DNA of 64,000 nt from a virus (taxonomy: Duplodnaviria; Heunggongvirae; Uroviricota; Caudoviricetes), in IMG/VR virus record IMGVR_UViG_3300027836_000006. The stretch is one strand, 5' to 3'. The first letter of the stretch is position 1, and every line of letters starts with the position of its first letter. Below, piece after piece: positions 3,148 to 64,000 of the stretch. A program made the translations under genes and the position numbers. A model generated the notes under the pieces. It ran no database searches and was not told where the DNA came from. It saw only the letters and a program-made list of their open reading frames with translations.

Positions 3148-3155
3148 GGAGTAGT

Positions 3156-3617: not shown

Positions 3618-3630
3618 AATACGCAGTTTA

Positions 3631-37622: not shown

Positions 37623-37635
37623 AAAGGAGAATGAT

Positions 37636-45941: not shown

Positions 45942-46060
45942 TACATCGGTTGGAAACTCTTAGAGAAGAGCTAGAAGAAAATCCTAATTTAAATGAAGAC
46001 CGTAAGGTTCGAATTCAAGAGGATATGGCTCGTTACTCTGAGCAACTAAGCAAGTTTTAA
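45809..46060 (+). CDS. possible small coiled-coil protein; overlaps the uvdE 3' end in another frame
   Basis: ORF only; 133-nt overlap with UvdE. Confidence 0.25.
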   Translation: MESKNKRMGNNFSKPVRHNVRKQGQKPRQHGTVQSSQKLSREQLIHRLETLREELEENPNLNEDRKVRIQEDMARYSEQLSKF

Positions 46061-46090
46061 TATAAGGGCACAAGGCCCTTATATTATTTT
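46061..46090. terminator. hairpin terminator between convergent genes
   Basis: 9-bp stem tataagggc/gcccttata with an acaag loop, followed by ttatttt. Confidence 0.55.
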
Positions 46091-46338
46091 GCCGCTTTTG
46101 GAGTACGAGGCTTTTTGGCCGCGGGCTTTTTAGCTGCAACTTTTTTAGCTGGTGCTTTTTTAGCTGGAGCAATAGATTCAACAACTGCTTGCGTAGCTTG
46201 TTCAGCAACAGGTGTTGGACGTTGAGCAAGAGCAATATCTGATGTATCCTCCCATGATTTTGTCTCCACCTTATACGGTACTTCTGAAACTGTTTCTACT
46301 GGTTTGCTACCAAATAGGTTCTTAATAAAATTAATCAT
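46084..46338 (-). CDS. histone-H1-like basic protein with AKKP repeats
   Basis: C-terminal PAKKAPAKKVAAKKPAAKKPRTPKAAK low-complexity basic tail. Confidence 0.5.
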   Translation of the reverse strand: MINFIKNLFGSKPVETVSEVPYKVETKSWEDTSDIALAQRPTPVAEQATQAVVESIAPAKKAPAKKVAAKKPAAKKPRTPKAAK

Positions 46339-46390
46339 GAATGATCTCCTTGTAGATTATTTATAATTAAATATACTACTATATTACATT

Positions 46391-47311
46391 ATGACTGAAA
46401 AACTACCAATTATTACTGTAACTTGCTTGAGAGACCTTGCTTTGCTAGATTTACAAGCTCAAGGTGTAAGCCAATATCTTGATACAGAATGCCCTGTATA
46501 CCTAATAGTAAACGAAGAAAATCCAACGGAATGGAATAATTATTTCAACGAGTATTTGCGCCACTACTACGACAAACATCACTTAACCATATTATACAGA
46601 GCAGATTTTGAAGCAGAATGGAATCAGTGGATTCCTAGTCCAATTAATCCATGGGCAGTTGGATGGGAAACACAACAGATACTAAAACTAGCAATAGCCA
46701 AGATGATTAATAGTGTCGGTTATGTAATACTCGACAGTCAGAATTTTTTAATACGGGCGTGGAATCCAAACTCATACAATATTGAAAATAATCAACTTCC
46801 ATATCGCTCTGGACACTTTACAATGCCTTTAGACATCTGGAAGCAATATAGCGATAGTTTAAAAATTGATGTGCCGCTGCCGACATCAGAATCCATGTCA
46901 ATGTGTACTCCTATCTTTATGCATACTGGATTAGTACAAGGATTATTAGATACACAAAACGGAGTATTGGAATTCAGTAAGTGGTTCAAGTGTGCTAGCA
47001 AAACAAAAAGCGAATTTATTTTGTATGCGCTATGGGCTGAAAAAAACAGCGGCATTAGTAAGTGGCATTATAAAGTTGAAGACTACGCTAATCCTTATCT
47101 GCGTGATAGCAATAACTTTGAAGCAGACTTTGAGTACTTTATAGGATTTATCGGCGAGCATCGACCACACGTATGGGCTAGTGCTAATCATAGAAGCTGG
47201 GGCGATATGACTGACGAACAATATTTAAGATTAAAGACAAAACTATTAGAATATAACTTAGTTCCTCATTTTGACGAATATCGAGCAACATATACAGACA
47301 TTAAAATCTAA
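46391..47311 (+). CDS. hypothetical protein (306 aa)
   Basis: ORF only. Confidence 0.5.
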   Translation: MTEKLPIITVTCLRDLALLDLQAQGVSQYLDTECPVYLIVNEENPTEWNNYFNEYLRHYYDKHHLTILYRADFEAEWNQWIPSPINPWAVGWETQQILKLAIAKMINSVGYVILDSQNFLIRAWNPNSYNIENNQLPYRSGHFTMPLDIWKQYSDSLKIDVPLPTSESMSMCTPIFMHTGLVQGLLDTQNGVLEFSKWFKCASKTKSEFILYALWAEKNSGISKWHYKVEDYANPYLRDSNNFEADFEYFIGFIGEHRPHVWASANHRSWGDMTDEQYLRLKTKLLEYNLVPHFDEYRATYTDIKI

Positions 47312-47312
47312 G

Positions 47313-47415
47313 TGTCAGGCGCCAATTCGCCGGTGAGCTACATTAGCTGTGATGAGAAGAAATAGGGAAAATTCTCAACTTGCGGATCCTTGGATACCCT
47401 ATTGATCGCCTGACA
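47313..47415 (+). other. structured intergenic element closed by a 9-bp long-range inverted repeat
   Basis: tgtcaggcg (47313-21) pairs with cgcctgaca (47407-15). The enclosed ~85 nt include the hairpins agcta-cat-tagct and ataggg...ccctat. A T-run follows. Confidence 0.4.
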
Positions 47416-47440
47416 TTTTATTTACACTAAATATTAGACT

Positions 47441-47998
47441 ATGTATAATTTTATCAAATGGACCTTAAACGAAGGCAAAACAACTAAGACATTAGAACAG
47501 ACTCCGCTGCCTTATGGAAGAACCGAGCTTGGACGTAGTTTAAGTAAGCAATCTCTAGATTATCATTATGGTAAGTTATACAAGGCGTATGTAGATCGCT
47601 ATAATGCCAGTGAAGGAGATACTGACTTCAACGAGGCGGGTGCGTTTTTACATGATTTATTGTTTACGCAATACCAAGCACCTACAGGTTCTAACAAACC
47701 CTCTGGAACATCTGCTGAATTTATAACAAAACATTTTAAAGATTTTGACAAATTCAAAAAAGAATTTGAAAAAACAGCAATGGGTATACAAGGTAGTGGA
47801 TGGGTTTATCTAGCTCGAGATGGTAAAATTAAAACTATTGTAAACCACGAAATTAAAATGGATGTTGTATTAATAATCGACTGGTGGGAACACGCATGGG
47901 TCTTGGACTATCAAGCTGACAAGAAAAGTTACCTTAATAACCAGTGGAAGATTATCAACTGGAACGTTATTAGTTCTCGAATTGGTCTATCGTCTTAA
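47441..47998 (+). CDS. Fe/Mn superoxide dismutase family protein
   Basis: Hand alignment to MnSOD places PLPY near the N-terminus. LDYHYGKLYKAYV compares with EIHHTKHHQTYV. FLHD carries the second His. DWWEHAWVLDY compares with DVWEHAYYL. The four metal ligands appear conserved. Confidence 0.6.
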   Translation: MYNFIKWTLNEGKTTKTLEQTPLPYGRTELGRSLSKQSLDYHYGKLYKAYVDRYNASEGDTDFNEAGAFLHDLLFTQYQAPTGSNKPSGTSAEFITKHFKDFDKFKKEFEKTAMGIQGSGWVYLARDGKIKTIVNHEIKMDVVLIIDWWEHAWVLDYQADKKSYLNNQWKIINWNVISSRIGLSS

Positions 47999-48266
47999 GA
48001 CTGCTTACAGGCATATCCCAAACCTTACGTGATTCAACTCCCTTTTCCTGGGCAAATCTTTTAGCATCACAGTCGCCACATACATGGTAGTAATTATTGT
48101 TTAACCTCTTAGGATCCATGTTACCTTTTTCACGGTTAAACACTCCTTGGCAACAGTCGCAACGAAACACAACCACAGTTTTCTTTCGGTTATATACATG
48201 CATTGTACCGTATTTGCTTTTACGATAATGCTGGGTTTGTCTAAATTCTGTTCCTAAGTACATCAT
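47970..48266 (-). CDS. hypothetical zinc-ribbon protein
   Basis: Cys cluster CDCC...CGDC. Convergent with sod, overlapping it by 29 nt. Confidence 0.4.
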   Translation of the reverse strand: MMYLGTEFRQTQHYRKSKYGTMHVYNRKKTVVVFRCDCCQGVFNREKGNMDPKRLNNNYYHVCGDCDAKRFAQEKGVESRKVWDMPVSSLKTIDQFEN

Positions 48267-48330
48267 GTATTTACTAGTTTACATTAAGGTTATAAAATGT
48301 CTTTGATAAATATCATATCGAGGGCACAAC

Positions 48331-48654
48331 GTGATCACAATTTCAGAATCAGCAAAGACAAAAATCAAAGATTTACTCTATGAAGAGGGTAATCCTAACC
48401 TAGCATTACGTACATTTGTTCAAGGCGGCGGCTGTAGTGGATTTAGCTATGGTTTCACGTTTGACGAAATAATGAACGAAGACGATTTTGAAATACCCTT
48501 AGACGAATTTAAAGTGCTTGTAGATGCGATGAGTATGACATATCTACAAGGGGCAGAAATAGACTACAAGGAAGAGATCATGGGATCTTCTTTTACAATC
48601 AAAAACCCAAACGCAAGTACAACTTGCGGTTGCGGATCAAGTTTCGGAGTATAA
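48331..48654 (+). CDS. IscA/ErpA/HesB-family Fe-S cluster insertion protein
   Basis: GGGCSGFSY and a C-terminal TCGCGSSF motif. Typical 107-aa A-type carrier. Confidence 0.8.
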
Positions 48655-48659: not shown

Positions 48660-51600
48660 ATGGCAAAGCAAATAATCGATATCGGCGTACAAGGTAATGA
48701 CGGAACTGGTGACAGTATCCGCGAATCGTTCCGTAAAGTAAATGATAATTTTACAGAGATGTATGCTGTATTTGGCGTAGATGGAGCAATTAACTTTACT
48801 AATCTAAGTGATGCTCCAGCTAGTTACGGTGCTGATCAATTAATCATTGCTAACAATGCCGGTAACGGATTAACTGCAAGAACTATTATTGGTGAAGGAG
48901 CATTATCCGTTGACCTTACCGATGAAACAGAAATTCGACTAACTGTTGATACTGTTGGACTAGCGTCAGACAACGCACCAAGTTTAGCTAATAGTTTAAA
49001 TGCTAACGGATTGTCAATTTTCAATTTAGCTGAACCCACTATTGAACGTGCTGGGTTTATTAGAGAGGACAATCCAACTCTTGGAACTGCTGAAGATGTA
49101 TTTGGCAAAATGGTTATCAATAAAAATTATGCCGATAATCATTATTTACAAGTTGATCAAGGCCAAGTTAGCACAGTTTTACGTGTTCGCGACGAACCAA
49201 ACTTTCCAAATTTTGAAGATCCAGAGTACGATCCAACCCTAACTGGTAACTATAGTTCAACCGAAGCTGTACAACGTAAATTTATTGTAAGCCGCAAAGG
49301 CGATACAATGACTGGGCCGTTAACTCTTAGTGATCACCCAACTCCATTAAGCGGATACGGTACTCCAAACGGAGCCGATGATTTACAAGCCGCTACTAAA
49401 TTCTATGTTGATAATCAGATTTTCTCAAGTGCGGTAAACTTATTTGTTTCACAAGCAACAGGCGATGATCTGCAACAAAATACTCCTATTGGAAAAGAAG
49501 GACGTTTTTGGCAATATGCTTACAAGACTATCGGTGCTGCAGCACTAGCCGCTGAAAACTTAATTGCTCTTGCTAATCAAGAACCTGGACCTTATCGTCA
49601 GAAATTAAGTTACACCGTTGGACCCGATCAAACATTTAGTACAATTCTCAGTGCTCCAGTTTTACAAGATGGTAACACTAATGTCGAAGGATATCAAGAA
49701 GCGTTTGACTTACTACAGATAAACAAAGCATTTATTCAAGCTGAAACTATTGCTTATATCAACAACAAATATGTTAACTCATTTACATACGATCGAGTAA
49801 AGTATCAGACTAACATTGAAAATATTTTAAATGCTGTTGGGGACGATATTGTTTTAGATACAACTTTTAATAGTAATCGTGTAGCTGGTCTTTATTTTGA
49901 CGGAACTAACGAACTAATATTAGGAACACAATTAAGTCAAACTATTGAATCTATCAAATATGCTCGTGACTTAGTGCTTAATTTTTCATACGACGATACA
50001 GCATTAAGTTCTTACATGGGTAAAGTTATTGATGCGCTTAGTTACGACCTAGTTCTTCAATCTAACTATCAGTCTATTCAAGCTGGAATATACTTTAGCT
50101 CGGCTGGAACAAGTCTTAGTGTTCCACAAATAGTTGAGATATTAATTGATTTAAAAGATAAAATTGTTGGTAGAACAACTCCGCTACCTGCTGTAGCAGG
50201 CATAACATCAGTTAAAACAATTGGTGTTGCAAAAGCATCTATCGAATCTAACATTCTTAATATTATTAATATTATTAGCGGTAACGGATTACCTGAGGTT
50301 GTATTTTCTAGCCAACCTGATACAACCACTGGCAAAGCAAGCGCCAGAGATTTATTGCTAAACAATATTTTATTTTTACAAGCAGAAACTGTAGCATTTT
50401 TAGGATCTGAATATCCAAATCTAGCATACAATCGTACTGACTACAAACGAAATATTAAGTATATTGTATGGAGTTTAATTTATGACTTCATGTACAGCGG
50501 TAATAGTCAAAGCGTATACATTGGATCGACATATTGGAATAATGCTGTTCGACAAATACAAGAATATGAGGTAGTACCATTTACTTCAGTATTAACTTAC
50601 ATTGATACATTAATGGGAGATATTGTTCGAAGTGATAGTCCAGCAACTATCTATCAGCAGAGCGTAAAGCAATATCGTAATGAAACATTACTAAATGGTG
50701 GCGACGTAGAAGCCACTATAACTACTAATATTGGTTATATTAAAAATATCATTCAAAACCAATCAAGTGCCCCTACAGTTGTTCAACCATCATTTTCGTC
50801 AGCATCATCATTCTTAAAAACTGCTCGAAGCGATATTCAACTAGAAAAGTCAGGATTCCAGGACGACTCTATTACCTATGTTGAAGACAATTTTCCTGTT
50901 ATTAATGATACTGGAATATTAACATCAATTAGTAACAAATTTCAAGTTGTAATTGACTTACTAACGTTTGATATTAATAGTAGAACTAATACTATAATCA
51001 ACGAGCCGGCTGGCACTAGTGCGGCTTACATTGACACTAAAGATTTAGCACTGTTAAACGTTAATTATATTGCTGAAGAAACTGCCGCGTGGTTGGCTAC
51101 GGCCGAACCTACCTATACATTCGATGCTGAAATACTTAAACAACATGTAATCGATTGTGTTGAAGCATCATTATACGATTTGATTTACGGCGGTAATAGC
51201 GCATCTTTGCGAAAAGGAACACATTTATTTACAAATAGCGAACTTGGTTACAACACTGGAGATGCTGAATTTATCAGTGCTCTATTATTTGCTTCAGAAC
51301 TATTAACAAACGATGTTATTCAAAACTTAGCAGGTTCAGCATTTTCAAGCGAACCGCAATTTATTGACGGAGTTGCTTATCCGGCAGCAGGTACTAGCGG
51401 TGTTAGTACATTATTATCTAACTCGTTTACAAACATTACAGAAATTGCCGTTGGCAATGAAGGCCCAGCAGTATTAGTTCCAGTACTAACTGGATACAAT
51501 TCTAGTTTAAGAACTGCAAGAACAATTATTAATCTTAATGCGGCCGGCGGTGGTGGCATTAATATAGCCCAACTAACAACCGATTGGTTGGATGCCAATT

Positions 51601-54600
51601 ATCAAGGCGGCTTTAACTATGATGAAGCTCTTTGCTATCGTGATATTGGATTGATCATCGATGCCATGTCTATCGATATTCTTACCGGCGGTACATATCA
51701 AACTATTGGTGCCGGTAAGAGCTATTATAGAAATGCCAGTGCCAGAGCTGTTGCCATTGGAACACAATTAACAGAAACACTCGATGCTATTATATTTGCT
51801 AGAGACCTAGCAGTTCAATCATTAGAACAAACAACTGCTAGTCGTTATCAAACATTAGTACAACAAGATTTTAACGAAGGAATTACAGCTAGTCCGTTAG
51901 CTGTTCAAGATTTGTTAACCAACATGAACACTATTGTATCTATTATACAAGGCGGTGTTGGTGTTGCTCCTACTCCAACATTTGGTACAGGTATTTGGAA
52001 TATCTATATTGATAACGGCGGTAACGGGTTTGTTGACCAAGGAGCAACTGGTAACAACGATATTATTCCAGCCAAGGTATTAGTCGGTGTTAATTCTGCT
52101 GCCTACGGTACGATTGTAAAATATATACCAGGGGCAACTATTGGCTCTGATATTATTCAAGTTCGATTGACCAAACCTGGATTTTTTGCTATTGGCGAAC
52201 AAATTGAATTTGGAGAAACTGTTCGAGATGTAAACATTGTTATACAAGTTGAAGCTGGTATTTACTATGAAGATTATCCGATACGTGTGTCGGCAAACGT
52301 TTCCGTTCGCGGAGATGAATTCCGTAGAACTATAGTGCGTCCACGTGACAGGGTTAGTCAAAGTCCGTGGCGTAAAATATTCTTCTATCGTGATTCTGTT
52401 ATAGATGCGTTAGAATTAGGTCCTATTGGCTACAATTTAGATTTTGCATCTAATAGCACAATTAATTTAGGCGGAACTACTAATAAGATTGTAATAACAC
52501 TTAGCACAGGTCAAGTACCGGCAGCGTGGGTTGGCAAAATACTTATGGACGATTTTGGTTCTGTAGAAGCCACTACCACTACAGCATCTAATAATCGAAT
52601 AACAACAGATACTCTACACGGTTTTAGTGTTGGTAATCCTGTTATTTTCCGGGGAACAACATTTGGTAATATAAATCCTGGACAGGTTTATTATGTTCTA
52701 ACTACGCCAACTACATCTTCATTTACATTATCTACTAAGAAAAATTCTACTACTGTAGTTACATTAGCCGATGATTCTGGTAGTGTATTAGTCATGCGTT
52801 CTGATCGCAGAGGTAAAGCAGTTGTTGACAGTGTGTCCGGTAACTTTATGAATTGTAGTGTTATCTATCCTTTCAATGAAGCTGGAAATCTTGTTGCTGG
52901 TGAGTGGCATTTATATGACCCAACTAACTATGGTAGACATTACTTAACAAACCCATTAGATGTCACTGCAGAAGCAAAGAATAATAAAGAAATTGATGTT
53001 TTTATAACTAACGATGCTGTTCGTATTAGTAACCTAACTATGCAAGGACATGGCGGTTTTGCCATGGTACTTGACCCAGAAGGTCAAATTAAAACAAAAT
53101 CCCCTTACGGACAAGTTTGTACATCGTTCTCTCAATCAATTAACCGCAAACGTTTTGCCGGTGGACAATTTGTTGACGGATTTACTGGACGCTTACGCGG
53201 TACAATTACTGCTATCGAATATGACGGCATTGAAAACTTTGACTTAACTAATATCACTTTTGGAAGTGGTTATGCTCCAATAGCTAACAGCTATACATAC
53301 ACCAATGTTCCTGTCCAAGGATTAACTGCCACTGCTTCGGGTACAAATGCTACAGGTGATTGGATTCGTTTAAATACCACTACTAATTTTACAGTTGGCA
53401 GTGCTATTAGATTTACTGGAACTGCATTTGGTAATTTAGAATCAGGTACATTATTTTATATTGCTGAAATTGATACTCTTAATAACGATATTAAGATTAG
53501 TAGAACCCAAGGCGGCGATTTTCTAGAATTAACTACTGCCAGCGGATCAATGTCTGTAGTAACAGGCGGCCTCGGCGCAACTGCTGATATCACAGTTATT
53601 AACGGTATTGTAACAAACGTTATACGCAATACTACTGGCGAATATTATAAAACAGGCGAGTATATCACTGTTAACGCAAGCGACTTGACTATAGATTTTA
53701 CTGGAGATACTACAAGCGGTAATGCTGTTATTAGCAATGTTAGTAGTTTATCTGGATTAACTATCGGTGATCAAGTTAGCGGAACAGGAATTCCTGTTGG
53801 CTCAACAATTACGTTTATTAATGAAACTGCGTCTAGTATTACTATTAACAATACTGCAACAGCAACTGGTGCTGCAGTATCCTTAGTCTACGGCGGTACT
53901 GGAAGCGGTTTTAAAATACCAATTTTTGGTGTTAACGGTAAAGGTCAAATTGTTACTGTTGTTGGTGAAGTTAACAGCGGACTAGATGTTCGTCCGCCAG
54001 AACCACCATGCGCATTCTTTGTGGAAGGCGGACGTTATCAAATTAATGATATTGTAAGTTTTAATGCATCGACTGCTACAGTAGTTTTAAAATTAGATTC
54101 AGCAACACCATATAATGCCGCTGGCGCATATGATAACCAAATATGTTCTCGAGATGTTGGATATATTTTAGATGCGGTCAGTTACGACTTAGTCCTTGGT
54201 TCAAATTATCAAGCAACCAAAGCAGGTATTTCCTACACTAGAGGAACTGCTAGTGTAGTGCTTACCAGTCAAAAGGGCCAAACATTAGCTGGCTTAAACA
54301 AAGCAAGAGATTTAGCTCTTGGTGCGTTGACCGATGTTGGAGCTGAAGCTAGTCTTGCAAATAGCATGGCTACTATTAACATTATTGTTGAGCAAGGCGT
54401 AACTGCAGCTCCAACTTTAGTGTATCCTTCAAGTACATCAACTTCCACTGAAGCTGAAAATTTACGTGATAATTTAATTGCTAACAGATTATTCTTAACT
54501 AGCGAAATCGTTTCATTCATTGCTTCAACATATAATTTAAAAAATTATCCATCATACAACGCAGTTAAGGCGGCACGTGATACTGGTTATGTAGTCGACG

Positions 54601-57600
54601 CTATGATATACGATATTGTATACGGCGGCAACTCTATGACGTATGATGAAGCATTATCATATTATAGTTTTGGAATTAGTTATCTTACGCTTGGTATAGC
54701 TCCGGTGTATGTTGCTGCCATGGAACGATTAAAAGTCGTTGCTAGACAAGTTGCGTTAGGAACTACAGTAACTAAATCTGCTGGTAATAATATTGCTCAA
54801 GAAATTGACGCAGGATTAAACATTCTTAATACTGATCCTGAATATACACAGATCGGAACATTAATCGATATTGTTAAAGACTACATGCTCGACGGTGACT
54901 TTGATGTAGGCACGTCAAGAACTACTCCTACAATATCTGGAGAAAACGCAACACTATTAGCAGAACGACTAGTAATCCAAGGCGCTAAATCAACGATTCA
55001 AACTAGCGTTGTGAGTTATCTAAATGACGGCGGCGGTTTAAGAATTAATATTGAAATGGGCGGTAACAAGTCCATGCTAGCCAATGACTTTGCTATGATT
55101 AACGACTTAGGTTATGCTATTGTTTGTACCAACGGCGGCGTGTCAGAACAAGTTTCAACATTTACATACTACTGTCATACTCACTACTGGGCTAACAACG
55201 GTGGACAGATTCGTTCGGTAGCTGGTTCAAACGCTCACGGTACATACGGTCTACGTGCTACAGGATTTGACGTAACTGAAAAACCAGACGCAGTTAACCT
55301 TGCTTACGATATGGTGCAAGTTGCTCGTGTTTACAAGTCGGGCCAGTTTGCTAGTGATATGACTCCTACTATAAACAAACAAGCATTGAGCGTGTTTATT
55401 TACGGTTATAGTTACATTCCGACTAACACTACCGAATTAGAAATTGATCATGGTATTGCTGGTGGTGGTATTACAAGATACGAAGTTAGTAGCGTTGAAC
55501 ATACAGTAGTTACTATCGGCGGACAAAATATTCTTAAATTGAATTTAAGTTCAGCAGGTAATAATGGAACATCGTCAGTTGGTCTAGCAAATGCGTTGTA
55601 TGACGGCCAAATGGTAACTCTTCGCGCTTTACAAAACATCAAGTTCAATAATATTGCTAACGTTAACCCAACTCGTCCATCAACTGCGTTACAATATACT
55701 GACAACTTGGCAGACATTTATCGTGTCCTTGCTTACAACTTAAACGAAGCCACTGGCGAATTATTGCCAAATAATGTTTCAATACTAGGTAGTGATGCTT
55801 CGTTTAACTATTATAAATTTGTTACAGATTTAAATAACATTACTTCTCTTGATTACGACGAAGCATTAGATGTTACTGGTGTAAGTGGTAGTGGTTCAAC
55901 CGTTACTGTTACATTTGCTACGCAAGAATCTGCTCCGTATGCGGTTGGAGATTTTATTACCTTACAAAATGTAGTAAACACCGGGCCTGTTACTACTTTG
56001 TATAACGGTGCGTATCGAGTTACAAATTGTACAACCACTCAGGTACAGTTTGCTAGTACACAAACTGCAACTTATGAATCAGGCGGCTTAGTTGGAACTA
56101 AAACACAAGGTTCGAGAGTCGGCGATAATAAAATAGCTGTACTTGAAATTAGTCAAGCAACAACAATTAACCAAATTAATAAAGGCACCTATGTTACTGG
56201 ATGGCACGGACGTACTCATTTAGTAACTAGTTACACTGTTCCATTCAAAATTGCTCAAGGTAACGCATTTGCTTGGACTAGCGGAACTAAAACATTAACT
56301 CTTAATGCTGTGTCTGGAACTATTGAAGTAGGCGATATTATAACAGGAACCGGTTTCCCAACAGACGGAAGTGTTACTGTTGAAAGTGTTACTAGTGCTA
56401 GTATATTGTCTACAATTTATTACTATGTAGTAACAAATATTACTACAGGAATTACTGTACCGTCTGGTACTATTGTGTTTGGCACTGACAGAAATGGTTG
56501 GTTAAACATTGCTTCAAACAGTATTAGTAATATTGTCGGTGATGGAACTGAGATTCCTGCGTTGTCATACGTAAGCAAAGTTGTTCCAGAAGAAGGATAT
56601 ACATTAGTTACATACAATGTAGCATGGACTCCTGAAACTCTTCCAATTTCTGATAACTGGTACAAACTTGCCGGGCAATCAAATTTAAATTATAACTACT
56701 GGCGTCAAGTATCAAATGTTGTTAGCGAAACTTTAGTTTCAGTGTCGGATGTTACTGGATTAAATTCTGGTATGATTGTAACTGCTGTCGGAACACCAAC
56801 TGCTTACATTCCGGCAAATGCTATTATTCAAAATGTTGATGCTACAACAAATACATTTACAGTTAGTCCAGCATGTTGGGTTCCGGTAGGTACTGTTGTA
56901 AGTTCAACAGTTGTTGCTACCGTAGCAAGTATTACCATTACTAATGGCGGAACTAATTACACTACACCGCCAGTTATTACAATAGGTGGCACACCAGGCG
57001 CAACAGCGAATGATCCGTTCGTAGCACAAAACGGTGAGACTGCTCAAGCATTTGCAACTTGTACAATTGCAGGCGGAAGTATTGATACTGTTACATTAGT
57101 AAGTCCAGGATACGGATTCACTAGTGTTCCAACAATTTATCTAAGTGCAGGCGATGCTGTACTAACAGTTGTATTAACTGCTACTGCTACTGTTAATACT
57201 ACTGCCCAAGCTGGTATTTCGAGAAATCAAATTACAGTGGCATACGACAGCAACCCTGGTACATTTAACGTAGACGACGTAGCAGTAATAACTGGTGCTA
57301 TTGCCGATACTGTGGGAGGCACCCTTGCTGGTACTGTATTAAATGTACTAACAGTTACTTCTGGTACACTAAGAGTTGGTATGCGAATCATAGGAACCGG
57401 AATTACTGCGGGAACTTATATTTCAGCATTAGGTACAGGTACAGGTGGCACAGGTACATATACTATTAACAACAGTCAACTTATAACGTCTCGAACATTA
57501 ACTGCTAGAGTTGTGGCAACTGGGTTTACTAGTAAAGTCGGGCCAGCTGTATTTCAAGGTAGCATTGCTTCCACAACATTAACAGTATCAAGTGTTACAT

Positions 57601-60533
57601 CTGGAACTATTGCTATAGGACAAAAGATTACAGGCATCGGTGTTGCTTCTAACACGTATATTACTGCCGGCAGTGGATTATCTTGGACGGTTAATAATAC
57701 TCAAACAGTTGGCGCTGGAACTTCATTTGCGGCCCGATATGCAGTTGAACTAGCACTTACTGGTCAAACAACTGCGCCAACAGCAAATGAATGGTATAGT
57801 ATTTCAGGCAGCAATAATCCGTTATACAATGGACTACACTATGCGGCTAAAACTACAACTACTGGTATCACACTAGCATTTGATTATGATCCAGGAACAT
57901 GGAACCCGGCAATTACTATTAGTTTACAAACTGATAAAACAGAAACCGATGGTATATTCTATGTAACATATGAGATTCCAGAACAAAATACAGGACTACC
58001 AGAAGCTGGAACATACTGGACTGTAACAGGTAACGCTACTACTGCTTACAACGGAACATTTACTGTTAGTGAATCAACTAGTACAACTATTGTATTAGCA
58101 TACCCTACTGATCCAGGAGCATACGGAGTCGGTACTACATCATTAACTCCTGTAGTGTTTATACAGAAAGAATTGTTAAGCGGTACCACTAGTCAGCTTG
58201 GACTTAGCAAACCGTTTGCTAGCGATTCGGCAGCAACTTTACGTGTAGGTTACCCTGCTGGAAGTTCAGCACAAATTACAACACGTATTAGTACTTGTCG
58301 TGCTACAGGACATGACTTCTTAGACATCGGTACTGGTAGTTACTCAACTACTAACTATCCGTATCAAATTTATGGTAATCCAACACAGTCACGCCAACAA
58401 GCTAACGAAGTTTACGAAGAAGGCGTTGGACGCTGTTTCTATGTAACATCAGACCAAAATGGTATTTTCCGTGTAGGTCGATTCTTTACAGTTGACCAGG
58501 GTACTGGTACTGTTACATTCTCAGCGTCAATTGCGTTGAGTAACTTAGACGGTATTGGATTTAAGCGCGGTGTTGTTGTAAGTGAGTTCTCAACAGATAG
58601 CTCAATGACTAACAACGCACCTGAAATTGTTCCAGTACAATCAGCAACTCGTGGTTATATTGACAAACGTTTAGGCTTAGACCACGGTGGCGGCCCAGTT
58701 GCGTTAAGCAACTTAATTGGGCCAGGTTTTCTAGCATTGAATGGTGCGTTAACCATGAAAGGTAATCTTAACATGGGTACGTTTGCTATTACTAACGTAG
58801 CAACCCCATTGATTACTGATTCGGGTAATAATGCCGCAAACAAAACATACGTTGATACAGCAATTGCAACGTTCGACGAGTTTGAAGAATTGCGTGATGT
58901 TCAGTGGGTCAATCTTGCTGAAGGTGAAATACCAGTATATGACCAAAGCAAAATTTTAAATGTAATTGGTGGAATTGGTAACGGTACTTCAATAACATTG
59001 AATTTTACAGCAGAGGCAACTATACCTTATCCAGTAGGTTCGATTGTTGTTGTTGCAGGCATTAGCCCTGGTACATACAACGGAACTTACATTGTTAGTG
59101 ATGCTACTGTTAGTAGTATCACTTATCAAAGTACCATTACTACTCCGTACGCCACTGGAGGCACTGTCAAGGCTAACAAGTGGAGAAACATTCAGTTACC
59201 TAACGATAGTGTAACTAGCGATGTGTTGTTAACTTATAACGGAACTACTGGCAAAATTACCAGTGCTATTCAATCTGGTAAGATTGTCAACAGCATGGTT
59301 AGTGGTACAGCGGCCATTGCTCAAAGCAAGTTGGACATGTTTATTGCTACTACTCGTGTTAATGCCACTGGCATTACTCAAGCGGAAAGAGGACTTGCTA
59401 GCTTTAAGAGCATTGAATTCCAAGCAACTAACGGATGGATTGAACTTAAAACCTCAACCAGCAATTCAACAGGTGTGCTACACACCAAGTTACAATGGAT
59501 GAGTCAAGGCACTGTAATCGGACGAGCAGCCACAGCAGGTACCGGCGCCGCAGGCGAAGTTTCGTTTGGTGACGTTGTTGCTAGTGGAGACGGTATTAAA
59601 AATGCTGGCTTCTCAGCAAGTGGCGCAATGACTGTAAACTACGACGGTGCTAGTACAACAAATAATAGTTACGCTGTTACAGCAATTAGTACTACTGGAG
59701 CTGCCAATAGTTTAACTAAAACTGACGGAAGTAGTAATCTAAATATCGCAGGCGGATGGATTAACGCAACAGCGTTACGTGTTAGCACAAATAAAATAAT
59801 TGATGTTAATACCGGTACTAATACTGTTCAGTTATATACCCCAGGGTTGTGGAACTTCTTATCTAGTACAGGTACTGACGGTTCTAATACTACAACTACT
59901 ATAACCGGTACGTTAAATGTTACAAGTGGAACATTAAAATCAACAACACTAAACGCTGGGTCGGCTGCTACTGCTGGTACATTGACAGGTAACTGGACAA
60001 TGGCTGGAGCAAGTAACTTGACTTTAGGTTCAGGTACTGCTGACTTTACTGGTGGTAACTTTAAAACAGATACAATCAGTACTGGAGCAGATACAACAGC
60101 AGGTACTATCCAAGGGTACTGGAGTTTAACTGGTTCAAGTCGTTTACAAGCAACCTACGCTGACTTAGCAGAATACTACGAAGGTGACAGAGAATACAAG
60201 CCAGGAATGGTTTTAGTATTTGGAGGTGATAAAGAAGTTACTACAACTGGACAAATGAACGATACTAGAGTAGCAGGCGTTGTTACAACTAACCCAGCTT
60301 ACGTAATGAACGGGGAACAAACAGGTATTAAAGTTTGTATTGCGCTAGCAGGACGAGTACCGTGTTGGGTAGTTGGGCGGGTTAAGAAAGGTGACTTGTT
60401 AACTACAGCAACTACATCAGGATGTGCTATGAAAGCAATTAATCCTACACTAGGCTCAATTGTTGGTAAGGCACTTGAAGATAAAGATAGCGGCGAAGCT
60501 GGTATCATACAAATTGCTGTAGGGAGAGCATAA
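48660..60533 (+). CDS. giant fibre/structural protein (3957 aa) with internal module repeats
   Basis: Uninterrupted 11.9-kb frame. The N-terminal motif IxIGxxGNDGTGDSIRESFRKVNDNF is shared with the next two genes. An ...YD(L/I)V.GGN... module is repeated at least six times. The C-terminal region YADLAEYYEGD...RVAGVVTTNPAYVMNG...ALAGRVPCWVVG..KGDLL looks like a fibre/spike C-terminal chaperone-type domain. Confidence 0.7.
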   Translation: MAKQIIDIGVQGNDGTGDSIRESFRKVNDNFTEMYAVFGVDGAINFTNLSDAPASYGADQLIIANNAGNGLTARTIIGEGALSVDLTDETEIRLTVDTVGLASDNAPSLANSLNANGLSIFNLAEPTIERAGFIREDNPTLGTAEDVFGKMVINKNYADNHYLQVDQGQVSTVLRVRDEPNFPNFEDPEYDPTLTGNYSSTEAVQRKFIVSRKGDTMTGPLTLSDHPTPLSGYGTPNGADDLQAATKFYVDNQIFSSAVNLFVSQATGDDLQQNTPIGKEGRFWQYAYKTIGAAALAAENLIALANQEPGPYRQKLSYTVGPDQTFSTILSAPVLQDGNTNVEGYQEAFDLLQINKAFIQAETIAYINNKYVNSFTYDRVKYQTNIENILNAVGDDIVLDTTFNSNRVAGLYFDGTNELILGTQLSQTIESIKYARDLVLNFSYDDTALSSYMGKVIDALSYDLVLQSNYQSIQAGIYFSSAGTSLSVPQIVEILIDLKDKIVGRTTPLPAVAGITSVKTIGVAKASIESNILNIINIISGNGLPEVVFSSQPDTTTGKASARDLLLNNILFLQAETVAFLGSEYPNLAYNRTDYKRNIKYIVWSLIYDFMYSGNSQSVYIGSTYWNNAVRQIQEYEVVPFTSVLTYIDTLMGDIVRSDSPATIYQQSVKQYRNETLLNGGDVEATITTNIGYIKNIIQNQSSAPTVVQPSFSSASSFLKTARSDIQLEKSGFQDDSITYVEDNFPVINDTGILTSISNKFQVVIDLLTFDINSRTNTIINEPAGTSAAYIDTKDLALLNVNYIAEETAAWLATAEPTYTFDAEILKQHVIDCVEASLYDLIYGGNSASLRKGTHLFTNSELGYNTGDAEFISALLFASELLTNDVIQNLAGSAFSSEPQFIDGVAYPAAGTSGVSTLLSNSFTNITEIAVGNEGPAVLVPVLTGYNSSLRTARTIINLNAAGGGGINIAQLTTDWLDANYQGGFNYDEALCYRDIGLIIDAMSIDILTGGTYQTIGAGKSYYRNASARAVAIGTQLTETLDAIIFARDLAVQSLEQTTASRYQTLVQQDFNEGITASPLAVQDLLTNMNTIVSIIQGGVGVAPTPTFGTGIWNIYIDNGGNGFVDQGATGNNDIIPAKVLVGVNSAAYGTIVKYIPGATIGSDIIQVRLTKPGFFAIGEQIEFGETVRDVNIVIQVEAGIYYEDYPIRVSANVSVRGDEFRRTIVRPRDRVSQSPWRKIFFYRDSVIDALELGPIGYNLDFASNSTINLGGTTNKIVITLSTGQVPAAWVGKILMDDFGSVEATTTTASNNRITTDTLHGFSVGNPVIFRGTTFGNINPGQVYYVLTTPTTSSFTLSTKKNSTTVVTLADDSGSVLVMRSDRRGKAVVDSVSGNFMNCSVIYPFNEAGNLVAGEWHLYDPTNYGRHYLTNPLDVTAEAKNNKEIDVFITNDAVRISNLTMQGHGGFAMVLDPEGQIKTKSPYGQVCTSFSQSINRKRFAGGQFVDGFTGRLRGTITAIEYDGIENFDLTNITFGSGYAPIANSYTYTNVPVQGLTATASGTNATGDWIRLNTTTNFTVGSAIRFTGTAFGNLESGTLFYIAEIDTLNNDIKISRTQGGDFLELTTASGSMSVVTGGLGATADITVINGIVTNVIRNTTGEYYKTGEYITVNASDLTIDFTGDTTSGNAVISNVSSLSGLTIGDQVSGTGIPVGSTITFINETASSITINNTATATGAAVSLVYGGTGSGFKIPIFGVNGKGQIVTVVGEVNSGLDVRPPEPPCAFFVEGGRYQINDIVSFNASTATVVLKLDSATPYNAAGAYDNQICSRDVGYILDAVSYDLVLGSNYQATKAGISYTRGTASVVLTSQKGQTLAGLNKARDLALGALTDVGAEASLANSMATINIIVEQGVTAAPTLVYPSSTSTSTEAENLRDNLIANRLFLTSEIVSFIASTYNLKNYPSYNAVKAARDTGYVVDAMIYDIVYGGNSMTYDEALSYYSFGISYLTLGIAPVYVAAMERLKVVARQVALGTTVTKSAGNNIAQEIDAGLNILNTDPEYTQIGTLIDIVKDYMLDGDFDVGTSRTTPTISGENATLLAERLVIQGAKSTIQTSVVSYLNDGGGLRINIEMGGNKSMLANDFAMINDLGYAIVCTNGGVSEQVSTFTYYCHTHYWANNGGQIRSVAGSNAHGTYGLRATGFDVTEKPDAVNLAYDMVQVARVYKSGQFASDMTPTINKQALSVFIYGYSYIPTNTTELEIDHGIAGGGITRYEVSSVEHTVVTIGGQNILKLNLSSAGNNGTSSVGLANALYDGQMVTLRALQNIKFNNIANVNPTRPSTALQYTDNLADIYRVLAYNLNEATGELLPNNVSILGSDASFNYYKFVTDLNNITSLDYDEALDVTGVSGSGSTVTVTFATQESAPYAVGDFITLQNVVNTGPVTTLYNGAYRVTNCTTTQVQFASTQTATYESGGLVGTKTQGSRVGDNKIAVLEISQATTINQINKGTYVTGWHGRTHLVTSYTVPFKIAQGNAFAWTSGTKTLTLNAVSGTIEVGDIITGTGFPTDGSVTVESVTSASILSTIYYYVVTNITTGITVPSGTIVFGTDRNGWLNIASNSISNIVGDGTEIPALSYVSKVVPEEGYTLVTYNVAWTPETLPISDNWYKLAGQSNLNYNYWRQVSNVVSETLVSVSDVTGLNSGMIVTAVGTPTAYIPANAIIQNVDATTNTFTVSPACWVPVGTVVSSTVVATVASITITNGGTNYTTPPVITIGGTPGATANDPFVAQNGETAQAFATCTIAGGSIDTVTLVSPGYGFTSVPTIYLSAGDAVLTVVLTATATVNTTAQAGISRNQITVAYDSNPGTFNVDDVAVITGAIADTVGGTLAGTVLNVLTVTSGTLRVGMRIIGTGITAGTYISALGTGTGGTGTYTINNSQLITSRTLTARVVATGFTSKVGPAVFQGSIASTTLTVSSVTSGTIAIGQKITGIGVASNTYITAGSGLSWTVNNTQTVGAGTSFAARYAVELALTGQTTAPTANEWYSISGSNNPLYNGLHYAAKTTTTGITLAFDYDPGTWNPAITISLQTDKTETDGIFYVTYEIPEQNTGLPEAGTYWTVTGNATTAYNGTFTVSESTSTTIVLAYPTDPGAYGVGTTSLTPVVFIQKELLSGTTSQLGLSKPFASDSAATLRVGYPAGSSAQITTRISTCRATGHDFLDIGTGSYSTTNYPYQIYGNPTQSRQQANEVYEEGVGRCFYVTSDQNGIFRVGRFFTVDQGTGTVTFSASIALSNLDGIGFKRGVVVSEFSTDSSMTNNAPEIVPVQSATRGYIDKRLGLDHGGGPVALSNLIGPGFLALNGALTMKGNLNMGTFAITNVATPLITDSGNNAANKTYVDTAIATFDEFEELRDVQWVNLAEGEIPVYDQSKILNVIGGIGNGTSITLNFTAEATIPYPVGSIVVVAGISPGTYNGTYIVSDATVSSITYQSTITTPYATGGTVKANKWRNIQLPNDSVTSDVLLTYNGTTGKITSAIQSGKIVNSMVSGTAAIAQSKLDMFIATTRVNATGITQAERGLASFKSIEFQATNGWIELKTSTSNSTGVLHTKLQWMSQGTVIGRAATAGTGAAGEVSFGDVVASGDGIKNAGFSASGAMTVNYDGASTTNNSYAVTAISTTGAANSLTKTDGSSNLNIAGGWINATALRVSTNKIIDVNTGTNTVQLYTPGLWNFLSSTGTDGSNTTTTITGTLNVTSGTLKSTTLNAGSAATAGTLTGNWTMAGASNLTLGSGTADFTGGNFKTDTISTGADTTAGTIQGYWSLTGSSRLQATYADLAEYYEGDREYKPGMVLVFGGDKEVTTTGQMNDTRVAGVVTTNPAYVMNGEQTGIKVCIALAGRVPCWVVGRVKKGDLLTTATTSGCAMKAINPTLGSIVGKALEDKDSGEAGIIQIAVGRA

Positions 60534-61576
60534 TGGCTAGACTTAATATTAACATTGGAACTACGGCAAATGATCGCACAGGCGATCCGTTACGTGCGGC
60601 ATTTGAAAAAGTTAATTCTAACTTTATTGAGTTATATACTAGCTCTACTCAAGTACAAAGCGATTGGAATGCAGTTACCGGATTAGGAGTCATACTTAAC
60701 AAACCAACTATTCCAGCAGCGCAAGTACAAAGCGATTGGAATGCAGTTACTGGATTAGGTGTTATTCTTAATAAGCCAACCATATTAACTAGTCTCGATC
60801 GTCTTACTAATGGCAGTAATGTAGTTGTTTTAGGAAGCAGTGGCACATTAACATTACCACTAAGCGGAACTATAGATAACTATCTAGATATAACTACTAG
60901 TCAATCTATAGAATTAACACCTAACAATCTAAGCCAAACAACTGCAACTATTATCGTGGATAAGAACGGGCCGCCCAATGCTCAGTGGGCAACTGTACAG
61001 GTAGGATGGACCATCACTGTAGGACTTGTTACTAGAACTGTAGCTTCGATTACTGAAGAATTAACAACTGTAAGTTTTGTATTAAATGGCACTGTTGCAT
61101 TACCTATGACAGGGAGTGTTATATTTCAATCTCTAGGAACGCCATCACTAGCAATTACTCCAAACGGTACAACAGCTTGGACGTTTAGTTCAGATGGTGC
61201 ATTATCTTATCCCAACGGTGCTTTACAACAAGACACCGGTGCTATTAACTGTCAGGGCAATGCCAGCACTGTAGTTTTCACAGCGACAGGTGTAAGTGTA
61301 CACACTATACGATTGTTAATACAAGTTGAAGGTATTGAAGGTATAGGTAGTATTATGGACACACAAGCATGTGAAATGATCGTAGCTAAAAGTTTTAGAG
61401 CCGATGACATAGCCGCGAGTGTTTATGGGATTGTGTATACCAGCGTAGCACCTTTGGCAACATTTACAGCACTATGGAACGGACTGACCAGCAGAATAGA
61501 AGTACTGTGTACTACACCCGGTGCTAACGGCGTAAATGTTAAGATATTCGCTACAGAAATTACAACATCAGATTAA
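60533..61576 (+). CDS. tail-fibre-like protein sharing the N-terminal attachment motif
   Basis: MARLNINIGTTANDRTGDPLRAAFEKVNSNF. Contains an internal 72-nt tandem duplication. Confidence 0.55.
   Translation: MARLNINIGTTANDRTGDPLRAAFEKVNSNFIELYTSSTQVQSDWNAVTGLGVILNKPTIPAAQVQSDWNAVTGLGVILNKPTILTSLDRLTNGSNVVVLGSSGTLTLPLSGTIDNYLDITTSQSIELTPNNLSQTTATIIVDKNGPPNAQWATVQVGWTITVGLVTRTVASITEELTTVSFVLNGTVALPMTGSVIFQSLGTPSLAITPNGTTAWTFSSDGALSYPNGALQQDTGAINCQGNASTVVFTATGVSVHTIRLLIQVEGIEGIGSIMDTQACEMIVAKSFRADDIAASVYGIVYTSVAPLATFTALWNGLTSRIEVLCTTPGANGVNVKIFATEITTSD
60650..60793 (+). repeat. 2 x 72-nt tandem repeat inside the fibre gene
   Basis: caagtacaaagcgattggaatgcagtta... appears twice, each encoding 24 aa (QVQSDWNAVTGLGVILNKPTI...), with a few synonymous differences. 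Confidence 0.7.
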
Positions 61577-61603
61577 CGGTAAATATACTAAACGGAGCAG
61601 AAC

Positions 61604-62194
61604 ATGGCGATACAAACAATTAATGTAGGCGGATATGCTAATGATGGCACAGGCGATGATTTACGCACGGCTTTTGAGAAAGTTAATGCTAATTTTGCTA
61701 CATTAGGAACTTCAGGGCCAGTACAAGACGGCGTTAACCTCGGCGCAGGTGTTGCTGTATTTGCGCAAAGAAATACTATAGATCCCGAGTTAGAATTTAA
61801 AACACTGACTAGTACAGATAGTAGTGTTGAAATTACCAGCACAACAACTACAGTAAATTTAAAAAATAAATCAACATTAGTTAACGATCCTAATCCTACG
61901 TTAGGAGCAGATTTAAAATTAAACGGACACAAGATTACGCTAGGAACAATAGGAGGTGGTGATATAGAAACTCCAGTTTTTGGCATTGATGTCAGAAATT
62001 TAAATGCTCTTATCTCCTTAATGATTACTTCAAATTCTGTGTCGCTGGATTTTGGTTCTATTTTAATTAACATACCTGGAGTTCCAGATCCTGCAAATGT
62101 AACTGTTGATATGAACGGTGTTAATCCAGACTTTGGCGGTTTTAGTGTGGCAGATCCATCGGGGTCATCATTGGACTTCGGAACCATTGTTTAA
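61604..62194 (+). CDS. fibre-like protein sharing the N-terminal motif
   Basis: MAIQTINVGGYANDGTGDDLRTAFEKVNANF. Confidence 0.5.
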   Translation: MAIQTINVGGYANDGTGDDLRTAFEKVNANFATLGTSGPVQDGVNLGAGVAVFAQRNTIDPELEFKTLTSTDSSVEITSTTTTVNLKNKSTLVNDPNPTLGADLKLNGHKITLGTIGGGDIETPVFGIDVRNLNALISLMITSNSVSLDFGSILINIPGVPDPANVTVDMNGVNPDFGGFSVADPSGSSLDFGTIV

Positions 62195-62210: not shown

Positions 62211-64000
62211 ATGTCGCTACAAATATGGACTAAATTATCAGGCTACAATTTTGGGGCCGAACCAGGAAGAAATGAATCTGTTAATTCAGGTAACTTTGTT
62301 GTTGGGAACCAATACATCATTGTCAGTGTAGGTACTACAGATTTTAAAAAAATTGGCGCACCGTTTAACACCGTTGGTACATTATTTACAGCTACTAATA
62401 GTGGCGCTGGTGCCGGGCCGTCGATACAAAATCTAAATAATACTATTGTAGAAACAGCAGGGTCCGGAGTTGCGTCTAAAATAGCATTTCTAGAGCGCCG
62501 GCAACTTGAATTGGCACTACCAGTAAATAGTACTCCAGGAGTTACATATTCTGTAATTTCAGGAAAGCTACCGCCAGGTGTACGTTTAGACAACGGTTCT
62601 ATTATTGGTAGTCCGTTCGAAGTTCCTAGAATTACAGATTTTGCTTTTTGTATCAGGGCTAGTAAAGCTGGACAAATATCAGATAGAACTTTTACTATCA
62701 CTGTAGAAGGCGAAGATATCCCTGAGTTCATTACTCCTGAAGGATTATTATCATTAGGAGATCCTGGCGAGTTATTTGTTATTGATAGTACGTATGTAGA
62801 TTATCAAATAGAAGCATTAGACGCAGATACAGCAACGGGACAACGATTAAGTTATTTCATCGATCGTGACGGCGGCGCTTTACCTCCAGGGTTAGTGTTA
62901 ACAGATGACGGTCGGATTGTTGGATTTGTTCAGCCTACTTTAGCAATCACTCCTGCTGACGGCGATGGCACTTATGATAATAGTTTCTATGACGGTGTAG
63001 CATTTGACTTTGCGTTTGTACCAACTAACGGTTATGACAGTTATATATACGATACTGTATTTTTTGATTTTGCTTTACAAAGCAACAGACCAAAAAAATT
63101 AAACAGAACATATCAATTTACGGTCACTGTTACCGATGGCGATTCTTTTACCAAAAGAACATTTAAAATATTTGTTGTAGGTGATGATTTTTTCCGTGCT
63201 GACAATACTACTTGGTTAGATGGTAACAGTATGTTTACTGCTGACGTTACTTACTTGCGTCCGCCCATGTGGTTAACTAGTAGTTACTTAGGGCTATACA
63301 GAGCAAATAATTATATCACCTTAATACTAGATACGTACGATACAGAAAATATAATTTACAATCTAGAACAAGTTAACGCCGATTGTCGGGCAACAACACG
63401 TCGTAGATTAGAAGCTGATAATATTATTGGTAGTTACACTATTACTACCACGTTAACAACGATTGCTCCAACCGTTGGGCATTTTTTAATATTCAACGGT
63501 TCTACTATAATTAATAGAGTGGATAATGTTAGCTATCTAGGTAATGGTGAATATCGTTTAACAGTTTATTATCCACTGGATGTTAATCTAGAAAACGGTG
63601 TTGAATTCTTAATCGGAACATTAAGTGTTATACCGCCTGGTATGCAATTTGATGAAAATAATGCCGAAATACACGGACTAGTACCGTATCAACCTGCTGT
63701 AACTAAAAATTATAAGTTTACTGTAACAGCAACTCGAATCAGCGACAAGGGTGAAAGATCTAGTACTCCAAAAATATTTACTGTAGATTTACTCGGTGAA
63801 GTTGACAGCGTACTTACATGGAATACTCCTACAGATTTAGGAATCATTAATGCTAATTTTATTTCTACATTAAGTGTTAGCGCAACCAGTACCGTTACAG
63901 GTGCCACACTTCTTTACACAAAGACTAGTGGGCGCCTGCCGCCAGGACTAAGTTTAGATTTAGACGGAGAAATAGTTGGTAAAGTTAATCAGTACGGATT
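62211..64000 (+). CDS. structural protein with putative Ig-like (He_PIG-type) repeats; 3' end beyond the window and absent from the ORF track
   Basis: Frame open from the ATG at 62211 to the window end. Repeated G(K/R)LPPG(V/L)xLDxxGxI(V/I)G motifs. gagag SD upstream. Confidence 0.55.
   Translation, partial: MSLQIWTKLSGYNFGAEPGRNESVNSGNFVVGNQYIIVSVGTTDFKKIGAPFNTVGTLFTATNSGAGAGPSIQNLNNTIVETAGSGVASKIAFLERRQLELALPVNSTPGVTYSVISGKLPPGVRLDNGSIIGSPFEVPRITDFAFCIRASKAGQISDRTFTITVEGEDIPEFITPEGLLSLGDPGELFVIDSTYVDYQIEALDADTATGQRLSYFIDRDGGALPPGLVLTDDGRIVGFVQPTLAITPADGDGTYDNSFYDGVAFDFAFVPTNGYDSYIYDTVFFDFALQSNRPKKLNRTYQFTVTVTDGDSFTKRTFKIFVVGDDFFRADNTTWLDGNSMFTADVTYLRPPMWLTSSYLGLYRANNYITLILDTYDTENIIYNLEQVNADCRATTRRRLEADNIIGSYTITTTLTTIAPTVGHFLIFNGSTIINRVDNVSYLGNGEYRLTVYYPLDVNLENGVEFLIGTLSVIPPGMQFDENNAEIHGLVPYQPAVTKNYKFTVTATRISDKGERSSTPKIFTVDLLGEVDSVLTWNTPTDLGIINANFISTLSVSATSTVTGATLLYTKTSGRLPPGLSLDLDGEIVGKVNQYG

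Follow-up and report, generated by a model that had tools for sequence, protein, structure and literature searches.

How can proteins of 196 to 3957 residues belong to one set of phage fibres? The question is raised by three consecutive plus-strand genes in the 64,000-nucleotide stretch taken from IMG/VR virus record IMGVR_UViG_3300027836_000006 (the window, a term used here for the whole stretch analyzed). They comprise a giant gene (48660..60533), a single intact open reading frame (ORF) of 3957 amino acids, followed by gene 2 (60533..61576, 347 amino acids) and gene 3 (61604..62194, 196 amino acids). An earlier note, made from the sequence alone, had taken them for fibre genes sharing a probable common adaptor. 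We found that the three proteins begin with an anchor of the type known from T4 gp9 and gp10 and that the giant ends in a Peptidase_G2-like (G2) domain; these end domains are of known kinds, in a new combination and on an unusual scale. An rIIB gene at 718-1530 indicates a T4-like background. We consider it fairly probable that the source is an uncultivated T4-like jumbo phage and the locus its host-recognition cassette, made of trimeric baseplate fibres with a gp9/gp10-type anchor, an accordion-built giant and a phi29-type self-cleaving end.

One anchor at the start of three genes

The giant, gene 2 and gene 3 proteins open with MAKQIIDIGVQGNDGTGDSIRESFRKVNDNFTEMY, MARLNINIGTTANDRTGDPLRAAFEKVNSNFIELY and MAIQTINVGGYANDGTGDDLRTAFEKVNANFATLG, respectively, a common N-terminus of ~39 residues. 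Pairwise BLAST aligned these segments with 54% identity over 35 residues (E = 5e-10) and 48% over 44 residues (E = 3e-9), similarity ending there, and a fuzzy six-frame scan of the entire 64 kb located the motif at three start codons only. The ORF list, BLAST and the scan together confirm that three consecutive ORFs open with one motif; the consensus written for it in the earlier note describes all three starts, save for the end of the motif in gene 3, which reads ..ATLG instead of (L/M)-Y.

The first 50 residues of the giant matched PF07880 (T4_gp9_10_N; 175 positions, gathering cut-off 25 bits) with 32.7 bits, and a phmmer search of its first 60 residues against PDB sequences recovered T4 gp10 (5hx2, residues 2-43, E = 2.6e-4) and T4 gp9 (1pdp, residues 7-48, E = 5.9e-3). 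With gene 2 as the tblastn query, the N-termini of annotated gp9 and gp10 from T4-like cyanophages were found at ~60% identity, and PHROG 677 and 958 (baseplate wedge tail fiber connector and wedge subunit) also matched the anchor. Because it matches PF07880, T4 gp9/gp10 and cyanophage gp9/gp10, the adaptor proposed earlier is best described as a known anchor segment (residues 1-39 of the giant, 48660..48776), with the pattern (I/V)-(N/D)-(I/V)-G...(N/D)-D-G-T-G-D-x-(L/I)-R...K-(V/I)-N-x-N-F-x-E-(L/M)-Y that stands at the extreme N-terminus of gp9 and gp10 as well. Nor is it a stretch of low complexity: besides the family and structure matches, it heads one to four adjacent ORFs in most of the 82 related loci introduced below.

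The N-terminal domain of T4 gp9 binds a domain of the wedge protein gp7 and has a homologous counterpart in the N-terminal part of gp10 (PMC3004832); a later domain scheme places the anchor segment ahead of the XD1 sandwich in both proteins (PMC8825819). Given this opening and the contact of gp9 with gp7, the most likely arrangement is that each of the three proteins forms trimers inserted at the edge of the baseplate, where, by homology, the anchor would dock them on the baseplate wedge.

Next, we considered how the arrangement is conserved. An IMG/VR scan with a profile of the giant's C-terminus gave 80 loci, in which the anchor and the G2 domain were then located with small hidden Markov models (HMMs); counts are over 82 loci. 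A G2-ended ORF is directly followed by an anchor ORF at 65 of them, with overlapping stop and start codons in 48 of these cases; the window's pattern of two downstream anchor ORFs is seen at 43 loci, and three such ORFs follow at 3 loci. The anchor is present in 30 of the 38 complete G2 ORFs, and complete proteins with both anchor and G2 domain are 262-3485 residues long, with a further 24 ORFs of at least 3474 residues cut by the 10-kb flank; related giants of 3290-3864 residues were found. A 330-kb contig has the gene order of the window (a 3864-residue giant, ORFs of 408 and 196 residues, and a 953-residue He_PIG protein), and a short syntenic contig carries a phrog_11903 homologue and QueD followed by fibres, namely a 262-residue protein consisting of anchor, short linker and G2 domain and then a 722-residue anchor-bearing fibre. 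At two loci (L048 and L074), the giant is split into an anchor ORF and an adjacent G2-ended ORF (1109 + 1263 and 3073 + 378 residues), as might arise from a frameshift, from a sequencing error or from a real division of the gene.

These counts bear on an alternative in which the genes are the phage's own gp10/gp9 wedge proteins, the giant being a gp10-like pin fused to its fibre, with gene 3 serving as the gp9-like socket of a separate long fibre. The anchor is indeed known from gp9 and gp10 only, the window holds no other anchor-bearing gene, and PHROG 677, the wedge-to-fibre connector, matches residues 1-107 of gene 3, whose strong conservation and fixed length would suit a core structural part. 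However, none of the three proteins matches the beta-sandwich of gp9/gp10 or the jelly-roll of gp10, the gp9 C-terminal socket is likewise missing from them, and the PF07880 match ends at position 38. Sizes of 196-3957 residues stand against 288 and 602 for T4 gp9 and gp10, and three adjacent anchor genes here against two in T4; across loci, one to four anchor genes, with a first gene of 262-3957 residues, are unlike fixed wedge parts. The cassette also lies among metabolic genes, not beside homologues of gp6, gp7 or gp8. We consider wedge proteins an unlikely explanation and continue to read the genes as a fibre cassette with a shared anchor.

The expectation of divergent, receptor-binding distal parts fits gene 2 and may not hold for gene 3. 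Beyond its anchor (residues 1-39), gene 2 has a variable body, for which the related loci offered one full-length relative, and we infer that it is a fast-evolving, host-range-variable partner. Because its start codon overlaps the stop codon of the giant gene in TAATG (60531-60535), it is probably translationally coupled to the giant. A tandem 72-nucleotide duplication within it (60650..60783, +; phrog_9729) encodes QVQSDWNAVTGLGVILNKPTI twice; the copies at 60650-60711 and 60722-60783 are 89% identical in DNA and encode an identical peptide, so that all their differences are synonymous. The SDWN...NKP unit of this duplication was also found in phiRSL1 and cyanophage fibres. Gene 3 carries the anchor at residues 1-39 too, followed by a body conserved in 33 related loci and, over the full length of ~185-200 residues, in 1315 homologues; on account of this conservation it may, instead of binding receptors with a divergent body, be a small partner that acts as a fixed adaptor or short fibre.

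The C-terminal G2 domain

The end of the giant, ADLAEYY...RVAGVVTTNPAYVMN...ALAGRVP...KGDLL (residues 3834-3957), had been likened to the chaperone domains of fibre and spike proteins, a resemblance upheld by homologues that match PF11962 (Peptidase_G2), by a phi29-type fold and by a scissile-bond motif. A search of a large protein set yielded 2331 homologues, and several of them carried a PF11962 label beforehand. Aligning 47 sequences showed D-L-A-E-x-Y to be invariant along with ~25 further positions, and 22 of these 47 homologues, at 53-86% identity, matched PF11962 at E ≤ 0.01 (best 5.9e-7). Since phmmer and profile searches of the C-terminus against PDB gave chance matches only (cytochrome c, antibodies), a fold comparison was required. 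An AF2 model built from the 47-sequence alignment reached a predicted local distance difference test (pLDDT) score of 90, and Foldseek listed 3gqh and 3suc, both phi29 gp12, for it, suggesting that the domain has the C-terminal fold of that protein; fold matches in BFVD included a 'Preneck appendage protein', Atu_ph07, CP220 and a Campylobacter phage tail fibre. Of the two chaperone types for which a search had been suggested, it is the G2 (phi29 gp12) type that was found. Peptidase_S74, the endosialidase/T5 pb1 type, was rejected, with no Pfam match and no S74 structure among the fold matches; those proteins follow a similar logic, their C-terminal domain aiding trimer folding and then removing itself, but belong to a different family and fold.

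The phi29 sequence WS|DFAEYFE (S691|D692) aligns with YA|DLAEYYE (A3834|D3835) of the giant, and mature gp12* in the phi29 virion ends at residue 691 (PMC6542822). From these two facts we predict a cut between A3834 and D3835 (nucleotides 60161|60162), by which the domain would cleave itself off and release 123 residues (3835-3957; 60162..60530, +). Identity to phi29 gp12 (PF11962; PDB 3GQH, 3SUC) is ~18%, and 123 residues follow the motif here compared with 163 in phi29. The carriers also differ, a presumed myovirus baseplate fibre of 3957 residues with a predicted cleavage as against a podovirus tailspike of 854 residues. In phi29 gp12, the auto-chaperone folds the trimer first and then removes itself.

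Alternatively, the domain might never be removed and serve the fibre as a trimeric knob at its distal end, either in trimerisation or in receptor binding, on the model of the structurally similar beta-tulip capsid decoration proteins, which are permanent trimers. The region of the phi29 scissile bond, however, is the most conserved part of the domain, with D, L, A, E and Y invariant in the 47 sequences and a residue-for-residue match to phi29 in D(F/L)AEY(F/Y)E. Moreover, the domain lies at the extreme C-terminus in all related loci and in 25 of 26 G2-bearing proteins that contain the repeated module described below, and it is 55-85% identical between fibres that are otherwise completely different. 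A conserved scissile region, a fixed position and identity across differing fibres accord better with a device for folding than with a tip specific to the host, and we judge the retained knob improbable relative to a self-removing G2 domain.

Among cultured phages, this C-terminal subtype was found in only 31 records at 35-40% identity, comprising Campylobacter T4-like phages, PA5oct-like phages, Atu_ph07 and Phosso. The G2-ended proteins of PA5oct (gp359) and Atu_ph07 (gp176) differ from the giant in their N-terminus, and PA5oct gp359 carries an annotation as virion protein that cites its detection by electrospray ionization tandem mass spectrometry (ESI-MS/MS). None of the cultured phages examined combines the anchor with the G2 end. 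The giant proteins of PA5oct and Atu_ph07 (3857 and 4449 residues) were discarded as orthologues, having neither the anchor nor the G2 end; their genes follow a large gp6-like baseplate wedge gene, the place of gp7 in T4. Separately, many metagenomic proteins of ~180 residues (P0084, P0086, P0112 and similar), some on 20-28 kb contigs, contain hardly more than a ~50-residue leader (MAAKYPLVL..) and a G2 domain; they may be minimal fibres or free chaperones.

Taken together, the two ends suggest how the cassette would work. Residues 1-39 of the three proteins, as trimers, would dock on a gp7-like wedge protein at the baseplate periphery, the anchor being interchangeable among them. After its anchor, the chain of the giant runs through a conserved proximal region, the six helical modules described below, which alternate with beta-rich inserts, a pair of conserved domains split by a variable insert, a distal shaft and the 123-residue G2 auto-chaperone. 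By analogy with phi29 gp12, three G2 domains may fold and associate first, which would bring the three chains into register before the domains excise themselves and leave the distal shaft (residues ~3500-3834) as the exposed tip. One anchor and one end domain, predicted to remove itself, frame proteins of 262 up to nearly 4000 residues in jumbo T4-like phages that belong to a large uncultivated clade. This framing offers an annotation route for thousands of 'hypothetical' giant ORFs, together with a predicted cleavage site that is directly testable.

Several results weigh against this reading. Genes 2 and 3 score below the PF07880 cut-off (24.2 and 16.7 bits for the first 50 residues; 20.4 bits for the whole of gene 2), and the family match covers profile positions 1-38 only, without the beta-sandwich that follows in gp9/gp10. 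T4 has only two anchor proteins, whereas related loci have up to four. No baseplate wedge gene was found in the window, so that the docking partner is unseen there. The last 200 residues of the giant reach 15.5 bits against PF11962 (E = 0.012; cut-off 25), and hhalign of the C-terminal profile against the single phi29 gp12 sequence gave 23 columns at 19% probability. The AF2 monomer model of gene 3 was poor (pLDDT 63, a helix at residues 20-36 only). The T4 late promoter TATAAATA has 2 plus-strand sites where ~5 are expected, which is no enrichment, and none lies ahead of the cassette.

The variable middle of the giant and its phycobiliprotein-like module

Between its ends, the giant varies by gain and loss of modules, accordion-like, resulting in extreme length variation among relatives. 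Compared with 32 related giants, conserved blocks cover residues 1-330, ~985-1300, ~1420-1530, ~1800-2400, ~3190-3460 and 3500-3957, and blocks 1530-1800 and 2400-3190 are found in few. The conserved proximal region (residues 40-330; 48777..49649, +) is present in 27-29 of the 32 and has no Pfam or PHROG match. Two further conserved domains are shared with cyanophage tail-fibre proteins, namely the P-SSM2 tail-fibre-like protein, its family phrog_9851 and S-CAM: residues 2086-2400 (54915..55859, +) correspond to the N-terminal part of phrog_9851, and residues 3190-3460 (58227..59039, +) to its C-terminal part, with 45% identity to the P-SSM2 protein. The two are contiguous in the ~1092-residue proteins of phrog_9851 and ~800 residues apart in the giant, where a variable insert of small repeated beta-rich units (residues 2401-3189; 55860..58226, +), found in only 2-7 of the 32 relatives, lies between them. 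The distal shaft (residues 3500-3834; 59157..60161, +), the tip of the mature fibre if cleavage occurs, follows. Several segments of the giant match PHROG tail-fibre families, and Pfam searches with its sub-segments gave nothing above threshold. Self-BLAST revealed further internal duplications at residues 1304-1399/1559-1654, 2380-2478/3403-3503, 3040-3081/3114-3155 and 3759-3787/3801-3829.

The most prominent repeat is a module marked YD(L/I)V(L/Y)GGN(S/Y)Q, of which the earlier note had counted at least six copies. Self-BLAST and HMM envelopes indeed give six full copies and one partial copy, so the repeats are present as described; what had gone unrecognised is the identity of the module. 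Modules 1 (residues 338-458; 49671..50033), 2 (551-681; 50310..50702) and 3 (782-912; 51003..51395) have a degenerate Cys-x-Arg-Asp site (YQTN, YKRN and LKQH, respectively), and the partial copy, defined by its HMM envelope, spans residues 453-507 (50016..50180). The site is intact in module 4 (944-1078; 51489..51893; LCYRD) and module 5 (1785-1919; 54012..54416; ICSRD), and module 6 (1924-2059; 54429..54836) retains Arg-Asp with the Cys lost (AARD); all copies are on the plus strand.

We searched 1.84 billion representative proteins exhaustively with the module profile and identified 1326 proteins at E ≤ 1e-3, 489 of them at E ≤ 1e-30. This disposed of the idea that the module is rare, which had arisen from a word-index search with modules 5-6 that gave only 2 matches. 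Many of the module-bearing proteins have 2000-6400 residues, with up to 36 copies each. Of the best 150, 27 carry the gp9/gp10 anchor and 26 the G2 end; their N-terminal adaptors are various. The consensus of 1017 near-full copies, ..LL.ANK.FIQ.EVIAYI....F.YD..KC.RDVGYI.DAV..DLLYGGN..S..AG..YY., is well conserved at its Cys (91%), Arg (94%), Asp (96%), second Asp (99%) and Tyr (96%).

Several comparisons relate this module to phycobiliproteins. A full Pfam scan of the giant matched a single family, Phycobilisome (PF00502), weakly on module 5 (15.8 bits, E = 0.014; gathering cut-off 22.2), and a related giant, P0247, exceeds that cut-off with 29.7 bits. Among 44 diverse single modules, 10 matched PF00502 at E ≤ 1 (best 1.7e-5), and no other Pfam family was matched twice. 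Against PDB sequences, 18 of 21 matches of the module profile were phycobiliproteins, with individually weak E-values (0.065-5); the module segment 'akCkRDvgyIldAvayDllyggn' aligned in register, its Cys opposite the bilin-binding Cys. Finally, hhalign of the module against 24 phycocyanin alpha and beta sequences from cyanobacterial genomes gave 93.4% probability (E = 2.4e-7) over 98 columns, pairing module positions 12-110 with phycobiliprotein positions 39-145, and the window's six copies alone gave 87.9%; controls, one reversed and eight column-shuffled, reached at most 2.2%. Judging from this profile alignment, the repeated module is probably a remote homologue of phycobiliproteins over a globin-like core. 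The aligned cysteine position corresponds to the bilin-attachment Cys84 of phycobiliproteins, in which the next Arg and Asp contact the chromophore. The likeness to phycobiliproteins (PF00502; C-phycocyanin, allophycocyanin alpha/beta) thus extends over their residues ~39-145, including K-C-x-R-D-(I/V)-G-Y...(V/L)-x-G-G near the bilin-binding cysteine. Unlike them, the modules are repeated in tandem within giant structural proteins of phages (6 copies here and as many as 36 elsewhere), many copies have lost the cysteine, and the N-terminal helices through which phycobiliprotein alpha and beta chains pair lie outside the alignment.

Could the likeness reflect convergence or shared helical composition, the modules being plain helical spacers? 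The weak PDB E-values and the restriction of PF00502 matches to 10 of 44 copies would be in keeping with this, as would the retention of the Cys-x-Arg-Asp triad in just 44 of the 82 modules of the giant's own family and 2 of 6 here. Likewise, neither a bilin-synthesis nor a lyase gene turned up in the ORFs tested, ten further ORFs included, and no CpeT homologue was present in the window or 88 related loci. Against mere composition stand the 98 columns aligned in one register at a probability that the shuffled and reversed controls did not approach, the score of the window's own copies, the predominance of phycobiliproteins among the PDB matches, the alignment of Cys with bilin-binding Cys, and the failure of any other Pfam family to match more than one copy. 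We regard plain spacers as quite unlikely and remote homology to phycobiliproteins as the better account.

The literature we searched contains no report of phycobiliprotein-like domains in phage fibres, which does not prove that none exists. The phycobiliprotein-like character of the repeat, which appears to be unreported, is what raises the finding above routine annotation. A bolder proposal makes the modules true ligand-binding domains: at least those keeping Cys-x-Arg-Asp would hold a linear tetrapyrrole or similar cofactor, and many aquatic phages would thus have chromophores on their giant fibres. We hold this to be very unlikely; if true, pigment binding would give the bilin-synthesis and CpeT lyase genes of cyanophages a virion-side purpose and change how those genes are read. 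If the module instead serves as a scaffold only, it would mean that virions put the globin-like fold to a new use.

A cultured phage with the module is S-PM2 (NC_006820.1, 159441-174226; phrog_4527), where a frame of at least 2779 residues contains four phycobiliprotein-like modules (KCKRD, KCKRD, KCERD). The gene cpeT, which encodes a homologue of T-type bilin lyases, lies 1.4 kb upstream of the start of this giant ORF, a proximity that may be coincidence. The RefSeq record draws 16 tRNA features within the giant coding sequence, which looks like an annotation problem.

Genomic surroundings of the cassette

Megablast of the 44-64 kb region against 50,697 phage records returned zero nucleotide-level matches. 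Downstream of gene 3, the fourth gene of the syntenic block (62211..64000, +, extending beyond the window) lacks the gp9/gp10 anchor and encodes He_PIG-type, Ig-like units with the repeated pattern PPG(L/V)xLD..G.I.G; its 953-residue orthologue on the 330-kb contig has a faint He_PIG match. Gene 3 is mirrored almost exactly by an antisense ORF of 199 residues (61588-62187, -), most likely a by-product of codon composition and not a gene.

Directly upstream of the giant gene lies a run of host-like genes (43828-48654). It encodes a QueD-like 6-pyruvoyl-tetrahydropterin synthase (43828-44352), a probable cytidylyltransferase judged by eye only (44501-44920), an endonuclease (44913-45941), a DUF6492 protein (46391-47311), an Fe/Mn superoxide dismutase (47441-47998) and an IscA/HesB Fe-S assembly protein (48331-48654). 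Before this run, the ORF at 41891-43345 encodes a 484-residue fibre-like protein without the shared anchor, whose last ~50 C-terminal residues match short-tail-fibre and tail-fibre PHROGs. Further upstream are genes for a ClpP protease (34191-34811), an ATP-dependent DNA ligase (35650-36978) and a Bax-inhibitor-1 family membrane protein (37615-38331).

The window is also rich in radical-SAM ORFs, with at least seven within one 35-kb stretch: 5634-6731 (+), 11826-13073 (+), 14482-15564 (-), 15561-16982 (-), 19678-20757 (+), 22373-23362 (-) and 39183-40550 (+). In Atu_ph07, three radical-SAM genes directly adjoin the G2-ended fibre gene.

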